DNA of 16,425 nt, taken from the IMG/VR virus record IMGVR_UViG_2648501186_000008, positions 1-16,425 of that record. One strand, given 5' to 3'. Origin of the DNA: a virus (taxonomy: Duplodnaviria > Heunggongvirae > Uroviricota > Caudoviricetes). Under the pieces are notes generated by a model. The model was not told where the DNA came from. It did not search any database and saw only the letters and a program-made list of their open reading frames with translations. Position 1 is the stretch's first letter. The number at the start of each line of letters is the position of its first letter. This document shows, in pieces, positions 4,040 to 12,567 of this stretch. The position numbers and the translations under genes were made by a program.

Positions 4040-4044
4040 TCTGC

Positions 4045-9296: not shown

Positions 9297-9593
9297 TCAG
9301 GTATGATCAAATGAGGATTTGTTACTGTCATTTAGTTGCTTCACTGACATATTCTGCGAACAACATGCCGAACGTCGTAAATATGACCAGTCAATATCAG
9401 GACGAAGTTCTTCGCACAGAACCTCACCTCTTGTTGCACGTTCAATTGCTGGACATCTCTCGGCAGGCAATTGACGTACCCCTTTGATCCATTGATTTAC
9501 GCTTGGAGGTGATACACCTAAAAGCCTAGCCATTGCTGATTGCCCACCGACAACAGCACAAGCTTGCTTGAATGAATAGTTCTCTTTTTTCAT
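9297..9593 (-). CDS. ydaS: Cro-like HTH regulator (YdaS-like)
   Basis: 98 aa; HTH segment FKQACAVVGGQSAMARLLGVSPPSVNQWIKG. Transcribed divergently from the repressor across an operator-rich spacer. Symbol is tentative. Confidence 0.7.
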   Translation of the reverse strand: MKKENYSFKQACAVVGGQSAMARLLGVSPPSVNQWIKGVRQLPAERCPAIERATRGEVLCEELRPDIDWSYLRRSACCSQNMSVKQLNDSNKSSFDHT

Positions 9594-9619
9594 CGAATGA
9601 ACTCCAAAAACACACAGAA

Positions 9620-9689
9620 ATATTAGGCGACGCCTAACGCAAATGTCAATAGGCTGTGCCTAATGCGATAAAGGTAGGGATTGCCTAAT
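9620..9689. promoter_or_regulatory. O_R-like region: three phased operators TAGGC-N3-GCCTA interlocked with a near-consensus leftward promoter
   Basis: Operators at 9623-9637 (perfect palindrome TTAGGCGACGCCTAA), 9650-9662 (TAGGCTGTGCCTA) and 9675-9687 (TAGGGATTGCCTA). Minus-strand promoter TTGACA (9649-9644), 18-nt spacer, TAATAT (9625-9620) drives the Cro-like gene. Confidence 0.6.
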
Positions 9690-9716
9690 GCAATGAGCAT
9701 AGGAGAATATTAAGCA

Positions 9717-10193
9717 ATGCTTAGTGGTAAAGACTTAGGCCGAGCGATAGAGCAGGCCATTAACAAAAAAATCGCATCGGGATCCGTCAAATCAAAGGCG
9801 GAGGTCGCACGCCACTTCAAAGTCCAACCACCATCAATTTATGACTGGATTAAGAAAGGCTCTATAAGTAAAGATAAACTTCCAGAATTATGGCGTTTCT
9901 TTTCTGATGTTGTTGGTCCAGAGCATTGGGGGCTTAACGAATACCCCATACCAACCCCCACCAATTCAGATACAAAAAGTGAACTTTTAGATATAAACAA
10001 CCTTTATCAAGCAGCCTCTGATGAAATAAGAGCGATTGTAGCTTTCCTGTTATCTGGAAATGCTACAGAACCAGATTGGGTTGACCACGATGTTCGCGCC
10101 TACATAGCAGCGATGGAAATGAAAGTGGGTAAGTATCTGAAAGCTCTAGAATCTGAACGGAAAAGCCAGAACATCACAAAAACTGGAACTTAA
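9717..10193 (+). CDS. racR: prophage repressor (RacR-like, CI-type HTH protein)
   Basis: 158 aa; N-terminal HTH KSKAEVARHFKVQPPSIYDWIKKG. AGGAG Shine-Dalgarno before ATG 9717. Flanked on both sides by the same operator motif. Symbol is tentative. Confidence 0.75.
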   Translation: MLSGKDLGRAIEQAINKKIASGSVKSKAEVARHFKVQPPSIYDWIKKGSISKDKLPELWRFFSDVVGPEHWGLNEYPIPTPTNSDTKSELLDINNLYQAASDEIRAIVAFLLSGNATEPDWVDHDVRAYIAAMEMKVGKYLKALESERKSQNITKTGT

Positions 10194-10331: not shown

Positions 10332-10508
10332 TCCAGCATACCACCCACCCCGCCCCACAGAACGCAGGGCAATACTTCGAGTTACCAGGCAGTGGTCAGG
10401 GGTTAAGTAGCCAGCCCGAGGCGTAAGAACATGACGGCAGGGTTCAACTTTAACTATGCAGCAGGTTTTTGTTCCGCCACCCCGGCGTTAAGGGGAAATG
10501 AGGTCAGC

Positions 10509-10664
10509 ATGGATACTATCGATCTTGGCAACAGCGAATCTCTGGTATGTGGCGTGTTCCCCAACCAGGACGGCACGTTCACTGCGATGACGTATACCAA
10601 AAGCAAAACGTTTAAAACCGAATCTGGCGCGCGTCGCTGGCTGGAAAGAAACTCAGGTGAGTGA
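10509..10664 (+). CDS. small early-left protein (51 aa)
   Basis: ATG 10509 with GAGG 6 nt upstream. The ORF-track version starts at ATG 10431, which is also possible. First ORF of the pL-like operon. Confidence 0.4.
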   Translation: MDTIDLGNSESLVCGVFPNQDGTFTAMTYTKSKTFKTESGARRWLERNSGE

Positions 10665-10665
10665 T

Positions 10666-10794
10666 ATGGATTTCGACACAATCATGGAAAAGGCTTACGA
10701 AGAATACTTCGAAGGCCTTGCCGAAGGCGAAGAAGCTCTCAGCTTCAGTGAGTTTAAACAGGCGCTTTCCAGCTCGGCAAAATCTAACGGCTGA
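10666..10794 (+). CDS. small acidic protein (42 aa), not in the ORF track
   Basis: ATG 10666 with AGGTGAG Shine-Dalgarno, 2 nt after the previous stop; translates MDFDTIMEKAYEEYFEGLAEGEEALSFSEFKQALSSSAKSNG. The overlapping track ORF 10661-10870 (GTG start, Arg/Ser-rich) is the less plausible frame. Confidence 0.35.
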   Translation: MDFDTIMEKAYEEYFEGLAEGEEALSFSEFKQALSSSAKSNG

Positions 10795-10823
10795 TAAGCG
10801 AAGCAGCACCGCGAGGAATCAGT

Positions 10824-11042
10824 ATGCAGAAACGAGAACCCGTCATCATCGCGCCAGACTATACCGATGATGAACTTTATGAGTGGATGCGCCAGAAAAT
10901 TAATGCAGCGCAGGATCTGAAATGGGCCAATGAAGCCAGGGCTAAGCAGGCTGAAAATCTGTCCGCTCTGGAGCAGGATATCACCAGGCTGGAAAAAGCA
11001 GCGGCATTAAGCATTGCCAGAATGATTTCATACCCGCGTTAA
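10824..11042 (+). CDS. small early-left protein (72 aa), helical
   Basis: GAGGAA Shine-Dalgarno before ATG 10824. C-terminal half (AQDLKWANEARAKQAENLSALEQDITRLEKAAALS) looks coiled-coil. Function unknown. Confidence 0.45.
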   Translation: MQKREPVIIAPDYTDDELYEWMRQKINAAQDLKWANEARAKQAENLSALEQDITRLEKAAALSIARMISYPR

Positions 11043-11177
11043 TAGCTAACCAACGAAGCTAAGGTTGGTAATTAAGGAGTTCTCCACGGGTCAGGTGGAG
11101 TGCGTGCGCCGGACACGGGTGAGCATCCGGTACGTTCTTTAAAAATCTGGATAGTCCCAACTTATTTAAACGGTTAA

Positions 11178-11609
11178 TTATCTTGAGTTCATCCAGAACT
11201 TATTATTGCAAGCGGGGCAAAAAGTACGAAAATGAGCATCAAAGCGCATTATTTCCATTGGCTGAAGTACAGATATTACCTTTTTTCCAAAACATTGTGG
11301 GCAAAGATACACAGTTATCTCAGTATCGCCTATAAATTGCTTCTTGGAATATACAAGGGTTCCAGAATCAAGCTTGTTAAGCTTGTAACCTTCCGCCTGT
11401 CGCTGAAAATCTTCTGTCTCTGCAATTTTTGCTTTGAGATGCATTATCTCTTCATCACGAAAGCGGATCGCATCGCAAAGAGAGAAGCATTCCGCCTGAA
11501 GCGTGATTAGTTTGTTCTGAAGTTCAATAGTTGCGGCTTTAACTTCTGCATCCGTTTTTGCGTCATTAATAACCTTAGCGAGACCAGCTGTCTCCTTTAT
11601 CGCAGCCAT
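11178..11609 (-). CDS. coiled-coil protein with C-terminal CxxC...CxxC zinc ribbon (143 aa), antisense to the early-left operon
   Basis: ATG 11609 has only a weak SD; the track extends it to a GTG at 11738. N-terminal heptad-like helix (IELQNKLITLQAE...EEIMHLKAKIAETEDFQRQ); C-terminal CPQC-x24-CPAC. AT-rich relative to its neighbours. Confidence 0.5.
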   Translation of the reverse strand: MAAIKETAGLAKVINDAKTDAEVKAATIELQNKLITLQAECFSLCDAIRFRDEEIMHLKAKIAETEDFQRQAEGYKLNKLDSGTLVYSKKQFIGDTEITVYLCPQCFGKKVISVLQPMEIMRFDAHFRTFCPACNNKFWMNSR

Positions 11610-11640
11610 AGCCGCTGACAGTTCTGCTATCACGTTGAGT

Positions 11641-11700
11641 ACTCTTCTCGTTGTTGGGGATATCCGGATTATACAAATTTCTTGTTGTTGGGGAATAACA
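11641..11700 (-). promoter_or_regulatory. candidate promoter for the zinc-ribbon gene: perfect TATAAT bracketed by an 11-bp direct repeat
   Basis: Minus-strand TATAAT at 11673-11668. Direct repeat GTTGTTGGGGA at 11650-11660 and 11684-11694 (plus strand) sits either side. No good -35. Confidence 0.3.
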
Positions 11701-11949
11701 GGAACCACCTCGCCTGACGTGGTTAAAAGCAGGCACACAACGCGAAAGCGTACGGCGAGGTAGCTGGTTCATAGATAGCCTGTCGTTAAATTTTCGTCGA
11801 CCGTGCACTTCCGGTTGTGGCAATCCGCGAAATGGCGCGGCGGTAAGTATGGCTGGGTTATCCTTACCCCATTAGTGGCACCGGGTTGTCAGGTTGACCA
11901 TACGCTTAAGTGACAACCCCGCTGCAACAACCCATGTTGATTACCTTTT

Positions 11950-11995
11950 GGCGGGTATCCGTTTTTTGTTTTCCCTTGTGATACCCGCCCTTTTT
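11950..11995 (+). terminator. terminator-like hairpin on the plus strand inside the early-left operon
   Basis: Perfect 10-bp stem GGCGGGTATC (11950-11959) / GATACCCGCC (11980-11989), followed by C then five T. The 20-nt loop is long for a canonical terminator. Confidence 0.4.
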
Positions 11996-11999
11996 AAAG

Positions 12000-12161
12000 T
12001 GAATTTTGTGATGCGGTGAATGCGGCTCAGCGCACGCGGAACAGTTAAAAAGGCCAGTTGACTTCCGTATTGGTTCTTATGGGTGGGTTCTCTGTATCCG
12101 GCGTTAATTATTAACTGGTTAACGTCACCTGGAGGCACCAGGCACCGCATCACAAAATTCA
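12000..12161. repeat. perfect 19-bp inverted repeat flanking a 124-bp segment
   Basis: TGAATTTTGTGATGCGGTG at 12000-12018 and its exact reverse complement CACCGCATCACAAAATTCA at 12143-12161. Confidence 0.6.
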
Positions 12162-12178
12162 TTGTTGAGGATGCGATA

Positions 12179-12361
12179 ATGGAAACGTTATTACCAAACG
12201 TCAATACGTCTGAAGGTTGTTTTGAAATTGGTGTCAGAATCAGTAACCCTGTATTTACTGAAGATGCCATTAATAAGAGAAAACACGAACGGGAGCTATT
12301 AAATCAAATATGCATTGTTTCAATGCTGGCCCGTTTACGCCTGATGCAAAAAGGACGATGA
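12179..12361 (+). CDS. small protein (60 aa)
   Basis: ATG 12179 with GAGGA Shine-Dalgarno 8 nt upstream, just after the right inverted-repeat arm. Stop overlaps the next gene's start region. Confidence 0.4.
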   Translation: METLLPNVNTSEGCFEIGVRISNPVFTEDAINKRKHERELLNQICIVSMLARLRLMQKGR

Positions 12362-12363
12362 CA

Positions 12364-12567
12364 ATGAATACAGTATTTGCACTCGTTCTGACGGTTTTTC
12401 TTAATACAAGCGAGCCAGTCGATCTTGTTATTGGTATACATGACTCAATGAAAGAATGCATGGCTGCCGCAGCGGAACAGAAAATTCCCGGCAACTGTTA
12501 TCCGGTTGATAAAGTTACTCGCATGGACAATAACGAAATCCCGGCAGGACTTAAAACAGCACCGTAA
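12364..12567 (+). CDS. small secreted/membrane protein with N-terminal signal-peptide-like segment (67 aa)
   Basis: MNTVFALVLTVFLNTSEP hydrophobic N-terminus. AAGGA 8 nt upstream of ATG 12364; an in-frame ATG at 12358 is too close to the SD. Confidence 0.45.
   Translation: MNTVFALVLTVFLNTSEPVDLVIGIHDSMKECMAAAAEQKIPGNCYPVDKVTRMDNNEIPAGLKTAP

Follow-up and report, generated by a model that had tools for sequence, protein, structure and literature searches.

A Rip1-family gene behind a sieB/sas-type leader: a probable abortive-infection module in the early-left operon of a Rac/Qin-type prophage

Rip1 ("ring interacting pore 1") has been described as a pore-forming prophage protein that kills the infected cell on detecting ring-shaped phage parts (Patel et al. 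2026, Nature 651:1060, as reported in PMC13434031). According to that account, its triggers are the oligomeric small terminase or the portal, around which Rip1 assembles as a ring, with an amphipathic N-terminal helix as the pore former and the C-terminal half in contact with the terminase ring (PMC13434031); the protein is also treated in PMC12908700 and PMC13601566. PDB entry 9oox is the Rip1 of phage HK446 bound to the small terminase of T6. Avs1-3, which are reported to sense the large terminase, and TerI, which is reported to sense the small one (PMC13601566), likewise recognise conserved proteins of late phage morphogenesis but are unrelated to Rip1. An Avs protein is a large STAND NTPase in which the effector domain is separate, while the small Rip1 unites sensor and effector in one. 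The other described system that bears on this locus is sieB-sas-esc of P22 and lambda (Ranade and Poteete 1993). sas is a P22 antisense RNA that stops the phage's self-exclusion; its antisense function is genetically established, and in P22 it shifts translation from SieB to the in-frame inhibitor Esc (PMC12197685, PMC7067206). The sas RNA itself has been sequenced (PMC13397905). Here we describe a locus at which a gene of the first kind appears to stand behind a leader of the second.

The locus lies in a 16,425-nucleotide stretch of viral DNA, the whole of which we call the window. The host element is a Rac/Qin-type E. coli prophage whose early-left operon contains ydfABC, a DicF-like RNA, dicB, an exonuclease gene, xis and int. 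The gene and the two halves of its predicted product are as follows.

11178..11633, minus strand: coding sequence assigned to the Rip1 family, 151 aa, GTG start at 11633 and TAA stop at 11178-11180.
11394..11633, minus strand: N-terminal helical half, residues 1-80, with helices at residues 2-24 and 28-80 in the AF2 model.
11181..11393, minus strand: C-terminal beta-rich domain with a four-cysteine ribbon, from the AF2 strands (pLDDT 93-94) and the Foldseek alignment to 9oox_M.

The original prediction had placed here, in an AT-richer segment, a 143-aa reading frame ending at 11178, with a CPQC-x24-CPAC motif and on the strand opposite to its neighbours. Most of this description stood. ORF calling and translation recover the minus-strand frame and the motif (Cys codons at 11301-11303, 11292-11294, 11217-11219 and 11208-11210), GC content is about 0.40 over 11101-11550 against about 0.49 in the flanks, and all other annotated genes from racR to int lie on the plus strand (RefSeq annotation of the identical ETEC4073 chromosome). 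The length, which had been counted from an ATG at 11609, needed correction: the N-termini of the relatives all read MIAELSAAM and align to the GTG at 11633, so the product has 151 rather than 143 residues. PGAP places the start at the same GTG in WP_046788612.1, the RefSeq "hypothetical protein" that is the product of this gene. Conservation at the three codon positions is 0.80/0.84/0.65.

That the protein might belong to a known family had been left open, and profile and AlphaFold-model searches do find one, Rip1. A family profile built from 80 relatives matches 9oox_L at E 6.3e-21 (residues 5-152 against 15-160 of 164), and the single sequence matches the 9oox Rip1 at E 1.4e-12. HK446 gp037 is 28% identical over 142 aa in BLASTP (E 9e-18), and tblastn finds homologues in phages of the DMS3/MP38/JBD group at E 1e-10 to 1e-11. 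The 151-aa protein also matches phrog_1244, an unnamed PHROGs family, at E 1e-51, and the Rip1-type family as a whole counts 2651 clusters at E<=1e-3. With the AF2 model (pLDDT 90) as query, Foldseek retrieves 9oox_M and 9oox_L from the PDB at probability 1.00 (9oox_M at TM 0.64/0.74 and E 8e-8) in an alignment that spans 122 of the 151 residues, the N-terminal helices being only partly resolved or comparable; the 9oox chains are the only significant ones among the 50 PDB matches listed, the next standing at E 0.43. Judged by sequence and predicted fold, the protein is a member of the Rip1 family, and this homology lends support to the defence or exclusion role that had been suggested for the gene, its function being read from that of its relatives. 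At 28% identity to the solved Rip1, trigger specificity cannot be carried over.

The protein resembles the Rip1 of HK446 (gp037, 9oox) and of P. aeruginosa prophages in belonging to the same family by profile and predicted fold, in its length class (164 aa in HK446), in joining a helical N-terminal half to a beta/Cys4 C-terminal half, and in being the product of a single-gene prophage moron antisense to the surrounding operon. It differs from HK446 Rip1 in belonging to a distinct and well-populated Enterobacterales subfamily (phrog_1244, start MIAELSAAM), and in the site of its gene, which in HK446 is between N and cIII. HkaP of HK620 and HK630 is another homologue (about 29% identity over 94% of the query), encoded antisense in the PL operon behind a leader of the same architecture, but it belongs to the HK446-like branch; it is annotated as a "putative superinfection exclusion protein" in AF335538, and in the literature that we searched hkaP figures only as a landmark in phage engineering, without a published function.

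General annotation resources gave no usable family. For the 151-aa protein, what Pfam, NCBIfam and PADLOC returned was only sub-threshold noise of the coiled-coil or zinc-ribbon kind, and this Rip1 relative escapes the PADLOC models of 2023. A Pfam search found no match to the SieB family, PF14163, in the 151-aa protein, whereas a genuine SieB encoded downstream of the same leader reaches E 9e-30; SieB is a membrane protein unrelated to the product described here. The original prediction had proposed a check for a DksA/TraR-like fold, which would make the protein a zinc-finger regulator working in the secondary channel of RNA polymerase and reprogramming host transcription, with no part in defence. 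The likeness is one of superficial architecture, a long helical N-terminal half followed by CxxC...CxxC: the cysteine pairs are spaced by 24 residues within a beta-rich domain rather than set in a helical finger, the family appears neither among Pfam matches listed to E 10 nor in NCBIfam, and no such structure is present among the 50 Foldseek PDB matches listed, where Rip1 stands at probability 1.0. With no similarity in sequence or fold, we regard the DksA/TraR reading as effectively refuted and give it next to no chance of being right.

Within the Rip1 assignment, both halves of the protein have counterparts. The first ~24 residues are rich in Ala, Gly, Ile and Leu, as they are in HK446 and DMS3 Rip1, and residues 1-80 align to residues 15-90 of HK446 Rip1; by alignment and analogy, this half would be the counterpart of the amphipathic, pore-forming helix that has been described in Rip1. 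In a crude test, the Eisenberg hydrophobic moment of the N-terminal helix was no higher than that of shuffled sequences, and the same was true of HK446 and DMS3 Rip1. The highest 19-aa mean hydrophobicity anywhere in the protein is 0.41, so there is no TM-like segment. In the C-terminal domain, C111, C114, C139 and C142 are invariant across the 80 relatives and align with the Cys pairs of HK446 Rip1, and GY.L, VY.K and ILQP are further motifs. Sequence and model suggest that this Cys4 domain is the equivalent of the Rip1 half that is in contact with the terminase ring.

The gene is carried on a discrete insertion with its own leader and terminator.

11129..11740, strand not assigned: whole inserted module (leader, gene and terminator), about 610 bp, from alignment with the module-less phage Tritos.
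11141..11198, minus strand: probable intrinsic terminator, an AT-rich hairpin UCUGGAUGAAC...GGGACUAUCCAGA followed by UUUUU.

Related phages exist without the module (Tritos was compared), and in comparison with these the ~610-bp AT-rich segment stands in place of about 50 bp in the interval from ydfC (10824-11042) to the DicF-position RNA (about 11935-11995). Conservation among relatives climbs sharply at -103 and drops past the terminator. The 5' arm of the predicted terminator overlaps the last codons of the gene; the hairpin (inverted repeat I1) folds at -18.1 kcal/mol with z -2.0, and relatives show partial conservation of its 3' arm and T-run (+480 to +500). A simple terminator scan did not call it. 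The module has no partner gene, which makes this a single-gene system, and the context was that of a prophage at all loci examined. Relatives found by tblastn in HK620 (hkaP), HK630, HK446 and the DMS3/MP38/JBD-type Pseudomonas phages are each antisense to their neighbours; DMS3-25 sits between its flanking ORFs on the upstream side of the portal gene, which is where Pseudomonas Rip1 is reported to lie, between the genes for the terminase subunits. When ORFs of at least 100 aa were taken, both nearest ORFs lay on the opposite strand in 53 of 87 distinct neighbourhoods and both on the same strand in only 1; the count with ORFs of at least 45 aa was noisy.

At coverage of at least 80%, the module is found in 59 of 5426 complete E. 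coli genomes. Such a low frequency would suit a decaying passenger, a Rip1-like remnant that has ceased to protect the host of its cryptic prophage, as would the facts that Rac/Qin-type prophages are often cryptic in E. coli and that the product, at 151 aa, has a shorter C-terminus than most relatives (155-175 aa). The state of the locus makes this highly improbable. The ORF is intact and retains the four Cys and the conserved FxMN end, the closest relatives are themselves only 155 aa long, near-identical copies occur in several strains and IMG/VR contigs, the leader and terminator are intact, and the replication, recombination, xis and int genes of the window look intact as well.

The module's 5' part, upstream of the GTG, holds the elements that link the gene to sieB.

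11668..11673, minus strand: -10 hexamer TATAAT, predicted own promoter of the Rip1-type gene.
11650..11660, minus strand: proximal C-rich repeat, TCCCCAACAAC on the gene strand, about +1 to +12 of the predicted mRNA.
11684..11694, minus strand: distal C-rich repeat, also TCCCCAACAAC, overlapping the -35 region.
11700..11738, minus strand: leader part A, GCCTGCTTTTAACCACGTCAGGCGAGGTGGTTCCT on the gene strand, at the 5' boundary of the inserted module.
11622..11745, plus strand: predicted sas-like antisense RNA segment of the early-left transcript, from collinear alignment with P22 sas.

The perfect TATAAT named in the original prediction is present on the minus strand at 11673-11668, and exact copies of GTTGTTGGGGA lie 34 bp apart at 11650-11660 and 11684-11694. 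The -35 of the predicted promoter is weak (TTCCCC, 17-nt spacer, overlapped by the distal repeat), and because of it a consensus promoter scan did not call the promoter; in diverged leaders the -10 position keeps TAnnnT, as TAATCT in most relatives, TAAAAT in HK446 and HK620, and TAAACT in lambda sieB. After the proximal repeat come a weak SD (AAGAG) and the GTG. The repeats extend to 16 nt, TTCT(C/T)GTTGTTGGGGA. As a pair they are only mildly unexpected within the window, two or more matches turning up in 9 of 200 shuffles. The case for their reality rests on the fact that about 60 distinct relatives conserve both copies; the columns of the proximal repeat are conserved at about 96%. The upstream 105 nt are better conserved than the coding sequence, with a mean column conservation of 0.88 from -105 to -1 compared with 0.65 at the third positions of codons and 0.47 in the sequence upstream of that stretch.

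The same cassette stands upstream of HK446 Rip1, hkaP and lambda sieB. Part A, which contains a CCAC/GTGG hairpin with an AU-to-GC compensatory change in 5 sequences, is nearly identical in the leaders of lambda sieB, P22 sieB and HK446 Rip1, and the 3' part of the leader, GAACCACC..GCCTGAyGTGGTTAAAAG.CAGGCAC, is nearly identical to P22 sas, lambda and HK446, with both repeats at equal spacing. The repeats are CCCCAACAAC here and CCCCTACAG in HK446, and both copies have been exchanged in concert for the latter in the leaders of HK446, HK620, lambda and P22. The locus shares with sieB-sas-esc the order of part A and two C-rich repeats 34 nt apart around TAnnnT, the placement of the gene antisense within an early-left operon, and a leader complement that aligns with the sas RNA. 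On this sequence evidence, the leader of the Rip1-type gene is homologous to the lambda/P22 sieB leader, and its two repeats are the C-rich motifs of a sieB-type leader, the complement of the G-rich sas antisense RNA. The regulated promoter region first proposed is a conserved and portable regulatory cassette, with the correction that its repeats are not simply operator-like brackets.

Since the gene runs antisense within the early-left operon, early transcription reads the complement of its leader, and this is also the case for lambda sieB, HK620 hkaP and HK446 Rip1. The plus strand of the leader aligns collinearly with P22 sas RNA, and the segment at 11622..11745 is complementary to the leader throughout and to the first codons, with two GUUGUUGGGG motifs and a 3' hairpin. 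The consensus fold is strand specific: on the plus strand it has 16 pairs, reaches -10.7 kcal/mol and contains a GGGG-loop hairpin rich in G.U pairs, compared with 3 pairs and -0.85 kcal/mol in RNAalifold on the gene strand, where a structured 5' UTR is unsupported. A pseudoknot drawn by hand, with GCCTG/CAGGC crossing CCAC/GTGG, was 90% paired but almost invariant, showing covariation at essentially one pair; we dropped it in favour of structure on the antisense strand. If transcription starts after TATAAT, the mRNA would contain the proximal repeat only, so that an antisense RNA or promoter function would have to account for why the distal repeat and part A are conserved.

In an alternative reading, the protein is a Rip1 homologue but the leader is a DNA-level operator and promoter for a conserved host or phage regulator, free of antisense control at this locus, the direct repeats and the CCAC/GTGG inverted repeat being protein-binding sites. 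The repeats do bracket the -10, and their copies change together between subfamilies, as operators would. Moreover, in alignments of short-leader relatives part A can be read as a sigma-70 promoter whose -10 is extended (TTnACC, 16 nt, TGgTATnCT), and a promoter scan detected no promoter for a separate antisense RNA. We nevertheless think this alternative unlikely. In P22, an RNA complementary to the homologous leader has been detected, namely sas, and its antisense function was established by genetics; the G.U pairs of the predicted hairpin would be C.A mismatches on the gene strand; and the module, which brings no regulator gene of its own, moves between phages of different immunity regions. 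Comparison of the leader by eye with motifs for sigma-54, sigma-32, sigma-E, CRP, LexA, IHF, nut/boxA and GcvB targets gave nothing convincing. At gathering thresholds Rfam had no match in the window, DicF included, and at E<=1 it had only a sub-threshold STnc100, outside the Rip1-type module.

An antisense RNA acting on this leader would do less than sas does in P22. An internal start like that of Esc is not conserved in the Rip1-type gene: the 80-sequence alignment contains no invariant or nearly invariant internal Met, and the Met at codon 9 varies among M, L and F, so that at most the "off" half of the P22 switch applies.

We consider it likely that the module is a Rip1-type abortive-infection defence that operates in the lysogen and is silenced on induction by a sas-like antisense RNA. 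Homology in sequence and fold, conserved cysteines, module boundaries, a leader homologous to sieB/sas and strand-specific RNA structure come together at the locus, and from these, by analogy, we infer that the 151-aa protein and its leader behave like the Rip1 and sas of the literature. In the lysogen, the gene would be transcribed from its own weak promoter (TATAAT, 11673-11668), and the GTG start and weak SD would make for inefficient translation into a harmless soluble protein. Late in infection by another phage, the Cys4 beta domain at the C-terminus would bind that phage's oligomeric ring proteins (small terminase or portal), subunits of Rip1 would gather around the ring, and their N-terminal helices would form a membrane pore; the cell would die or lyse ahead of progeny maturation, which is abortive infection. 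On induction of the prophage, the early-left transcript would carry the sas-like RNA (plus strand, about 11622-11745), which would pair with the leader and start region and turn translation off, and with translation off the resident prophage's own terminase and portal would not trigger suicide.

These results extend the Rip1 family to a distinct and common Enterobacterales branch and add a new insertion site, which in Rac/Qin-type prophages lies between ydfC and the DicF-position RNA, for a gene whose product annotation pipelines still label hypothetical. The more useful point may be the control region, a classical sieB/sas cassette that is also present on the experimentally studied HK446 Rip1. 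It offers a testable answer to how a prophage could carry a sensor of terminase or portal rings without killing itself on induction. Among the matches listed, SieB and about 30 other, unannotated clusters of small cargo ORFs have this cassette in front of them; examples behind part A are phrog_5286, phrog_6315, a 70-aa zinc ribbon and a 106-aa membrane protein. The conserved end of the cassette has matches in 2018 of 5426 complete E. coli genomes. We tentatively raise the possibility, which we would not yet call probable, that the sieB/sas-type leader is a general and portable self/non-self switch of enterobacterial lambdoid prophages. Were this so, any suicide-type defence gene that lies behind the leader, in antisense orientation within an early operon, would be active in the lysogen and shut down by early transcription of the phage itself; the Rip1-type genes, SieB and the roughly 30 cargo clusters would form a catalogue of mostly unknown defence genes, and part A would be a simple DNA tag for finding them. 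The cassette could in any case serve as a search handle for further accessory or defence genes expressed in lysogens.

The window matches, at 100% identity, a chromosomal stretch of porcine E. coli ETEC4073 and its close relatives; the rip1-like gene, annotated there as 'hypothetical protein', lies in a lambdoid prophage early region. The original prediction placed it opposite to its neighbors, and PGAP shows no other minus-strand gene from racR to the integrase.

Early-region features in window coordinates (PGAP, ETEC4073 chromosome)
Minus strand: replication protein P, DnaT-like protein, ydaT/ydaS
9717-10193, plus strand: racR
Plus strand: ydfA-like gene (DUF1391), ydfB
10824-11042, plus strand: ydfC
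11178-11633, minus strand: WP_046788612.1, the rip1-like gene
12179-12361, plus strand: dicB
Plus strand: DUF1482 gene, 823-aa exonuclease, excisionase-like gene, integrase

The predicted ORF is present in the sequence, its translation contains the predicted CPQC-x24-CPAC arrangement, and the segment is AT-rich as claimed, with GC falling to ~0.40. The proposed length of 143 aa must be revised to 151 aa because the MIAELSAAM N-terminus of all relatives corresponds to the GTG at 11633; this GTG start and a weak Shine-Dalgarno sequence (AAGAG) are conserved among relatives. The prophage is a mosaic that combines Rac-type immunity (racR with divergent ydaS/ydaT, 9297-10193) with a Qin-type ydfABC/dicB early-left operon (10431-12567), and its 823-aa exonuclease is RecE-like.

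Searches of Pfam, NCBIfam and PADLOC (2023) with the protein gave no usable match, and the unnamed PHROGs family phrog_1244 matched at E 1e-51. A large protein search returned 149 relatives across Enterobacterales, all labeled 'hypothetical', and an exhaustive profile search extended the family to 2651 clusters (50% identity) at E<=1e-3. A profile of 80 relatives matched PDB entry 9oox, 'ring interacting pore 1 (Rip1)', over its full length at E 6.3e-21, and the single sequence matched the entry at E 1.4e-12; its title is 'Escherichia phage HK446 Rip1 in complex with the Enterobacteria phage T6 small terminase', and a 142-residue BLASTP alignment of the protein to HK446 gp037 shows 28% identity (E 9e-18). 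The AlphaFold2 model (pLDDT 90) has a beta-rich domain behind two helices (2-24 and 28-80), and its sole PDB matches are the 9oox chains (probability 1.00, TM 0.64/0.74), the next lying at E 0.43. All family members keep the four cysteines of the Cys4 domain, which line up with the HK446 Rip1 cysteines. The product is a member of the Rip1 family, described in 2026, and not a new kind of system. A DksA/TraR-like regulator, a fold that the original prediction had named for checking, is rejected, as neither the Pfam hits listed up to E 10 nor the PDB fold hits listed include one. A SieB-like membrane protein is likewise rejected on the lack of a PF14163 match and of a hydrophobic segment; the same search gives E 9e-30 for a genuine SieB that follows this type of leader.

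Rip1 is described as a single-protein prophage defense (Patel et al. 2026, Nature 651:1060, summarized in the 2026 review PMC13434031). As that review relates it, the first Rip1 came from a Pseudomonas aeruginosa prophage, where it lies between terminase subunit genes, and homologues are common across proteobacterial prophages. The same account has Rip1 alone as non-toxic, with escapers carrying portal mutations in Pseudomonas phages and small terminase mutations in E. coli phages, and a small terminase 11-mer encircled by 12 Rip1 subunits that contact the ring through their C-terminal half and have an amphipathic helix as the N-terminal part (PMC13434031). The complex is a pore, as judged by liposome dye release and holes in cells, and the infected cell dies prematurely (PMC13434031); what two further papers say of Rip1 is consistent with this account. 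Our tblastn matches included DMS3-25, MP38 ORF25 and JBD-type phages, in which the gene stands directly 5′ of the portal gene on the strand opposite to its neighbors, the reported position of Pseudomonas Rip1, as well as HK446 gp037, HK620 hkaP and HK630 HkaP, which run antisense to the PL operon at a site between N and cIII. By crude ORF calling, both nearest ORFs of at least 100 aa were on the other strand in 53 of 87 distinct neighborhoods and both on the same strand in 1 of 87. Antisense placement is a trait of the Rip1 family.

The ydfC, DicF and dicB region also occurs without the rip1-like gene in phages such as Tritos, and in a pairwise alignment ~11129-11740 of the window stands in place of ~50 bp of Tritos. 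Among 69 distinct relatives, conservation jumps ~103 nt 5′ of the start codon and drops again 3′ of a hairpin and T-run close behind the stop codon, marking an autonomous module; the hairpin (11141-11198, minus strand; -18.1 kcal/mol, z -2.0 by RNA folding) is likely the terminator of the gene. That the gene is a decayed passenger is unlikely, since ORF, leader and terminator are all intact. Of 5426 complete E. coli genomes, 59 carry the whole module, and its conserved distal leader end, part A (window 11700-11738; CTTTTnACCACnTCAGGCnnGGTGG), has matches in 2018 of the 5426. In a large group of relatives, among them phage PhiR29_2 (L005) and many loci from IMG/VR (e.g., L052-L066), the gene directly adjoins the cI repressor gene, convergent with it, instead of lying deep in the early-left operon; lambdoid genomes thus hold the module in at least three different slots. 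The terminator 3′ arm TATCCAGAT (within 11146-11197) is complementary to the leader segment ATCTGGATA (ATCCGGATA in the window, 11664-11673) adjoining the -10, and such 5′-3′ pairing may in principle be an alternative to the terminator stem, or a coincidence.

Conservation is higher in the 105 nt 5′ of the start codon than in the coding DNA, and it reaches ~96% in each repeat copy.

Mean column conservation
Leader, -105 to -1: 0.88
Codon position 1: 0.80
Codon position 2: 0.84
Codon position 3: 0.65
Further upstream than the leader: 0.47

The TATAAT (11673-11668) and the two exact copies of GTTGTTGGGGA (11650-11660 and 11684-11694, 34 bp apart) are as predicted, the pair being only modestly improbable within the window (two matches in 9 of 200 shuffles). 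At the -10 position most relatives have TAATCT, HK446/HK620 have TAAAAT and lambda has TAAACT, so that a TAnnnT hexamer is kept; the -35 is poor (TTCCCC, within the distal repeat). These elements support a putative weak stand-alone promoter for the gene, as the original prediction had proposed. The leaders of HK446 Rip1 and hkaP have the same architecture and a near-identical part A (tgcctgtcttttaaccacatcaggctcggtgg), with the repeat motif altered in concert to CCCCTACAG in both copies.

This HK446 Rip1/hkaP leader type is also the upstream region of lambda sieB (NC_001416 34482-35036), a plus-strand gene of the PL operon. In P22, the antisense RNA sas is described as pairing with sieB mRNA and switching its translation (Ranade and Poteete 1993; reviewed in PMC12197685 and PMC7067206), and the two reviews state that it lets P22 escape its own exclusion system. 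Aligned to the P22 sas sequence printed in a 2026 RNA-seq paper (PMC13397905), window plus strand 11622-11760 is collinear; two (C/T)TGT(A/T)GGGG motifs are equally spaced in both, and the 3′ part, GAACCACC..GCCTGAyGTGGTTAAAAG.CAGGCAC, is near-identical. Across 40 leaders, the consensus fold of the early-operon strand has 16 pairs (-10.7 kcal/mol), including a GGGG-loop hairpin rich in G.U pairs, versus 3 pairs (-0.85 kcal/mol) on the gene strand, where those G.U pairs would be C.A mismatches. Given the alignment and this strand-specific fold, the most fitting reading of the repeats is as a pair of C-rich target motifs in a sieB-type leader, whose other strand carries the G-rich motifs of a putative sas-like antisense RNA. 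That the repeats act simply as DNA-level operators, a role that their bracketing of the -10 would fit, we regard as improbable.

The mechanism we propose joins two published accounts, as far as these sources describe them: Rip1 senses terminase/portal rings and forms a lethal pore, and SieB translation is blocked by sas in the phage's own lytic growth. In a lysogen, low-level expression of the rip1-like gene would abort infection by other phages. Upon derepression of the prophage, the early-left transcript would carry the sas-like segment ~200 nt 5′ of the DicF-position RNA, and pairing of this segment with the leader and start codon of the rip1-like gene would silence the gene, so that the prophage's own packaging proteins trigger no suicide. 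The likeness to P22/lambda sieB lies in the leader (part A, two repeats, antisense placement in the early-left operon); P22 sieB also yields Esc, an in-frame inhibitor from an internal start. Because the rip1-like family has no conserved internal Met, only the 'off' switch would be expected, without an Esc-like antidote.

In Qin, processing of the early-left precursor yields DicF. At the DicF position (window 11925-12005, plus strand) the sequence diverges strongly from K-12/Tritos DicF between flanks ~95% identical, keeping the 3′ GC-rich hairpin (GGCGGGTATC...GATACCCGCC) and T-run; Rfam gave no DicF call there even at E<=1. This variant resembles a distinct sRNA whose seed differs from that of DicF, and it is present, unannotated, in 163 of 5426 E. 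coli genomes. Between it and dicB, 12002-12156 (plus strand), also kept in Tritos, matches the Salmonella sRNA candidate STnc100 in Rfam below threshold (33.5 bits vs. a gathering score of 47; E 4e-5).

The conserved leader of the rip1-like gene is a portable cassette. Its two-repeat pattern occurs in at least 120 stretches of viral contigs; among the matches listed, a Rip1 homologue lies downstream in 48 and an unrelated 144-148-aa protein, phrog_5286, without a match in Pfam, PADLOC or PDB, in another 48. Part A alone occurs in 115 distinct viral-contig contexts, 82 with a cargo ORF of at least 40 aa, and these ORFs fall into 30 BLAST clusters (22 singletons), SieB among them. Part-A cassettes are again mostly antisense to their neighbors (opposite on both sides in 38 of 94, same on both sides in 2 of 94). 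Cargo at viral-contig loci L104-L337 includes Rip1-like genes, SieB (PF14163), phrog_5286, the membrane protein phrog_6315, a 70-aa zinc-ribbon protein and a 106-aa membrane protein, and nearly all clusters are without known function. At locus L273 (match at 4043, plus strand), the 136-aa cargo has a Rip1-like architecture, with an N-terminal coiled coil and a C-terminal CPNC...CSFC, yet is unlinked to Rip1 in BLAST clustering and gave weak coiled-coil noise only against Pfam and PADLOC; it may represent a very remote Rip1-like sensor. In the 'short' leader type (67 of 94; e.g., L303, L241, L307, L258), part A is followed by GGTGGTAT(N)CT, which reads as a candidate extended -10, TGnTATnCT, with a -35 TTnACC 16 nt upstream, and by one hairpin with a C/A-rich loop (TCACCACAG, CTCACACAG) and the Shine-Dalgarno on its 3′ arm. 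In the 'two-repeat' type (27 of 94; the window, hkaP and sieB), the part-A -10 is degraded and a second putative -10 lies between the repeats. That Rip1-type genes are tied to a sieB/sas control cassette, and how widely this cassette occurs, may be new. The protein itself is ordinary and explained; the regulatory idea is testable and worthwhile, and the cassette is a possible handle on further prophage accessory genes.
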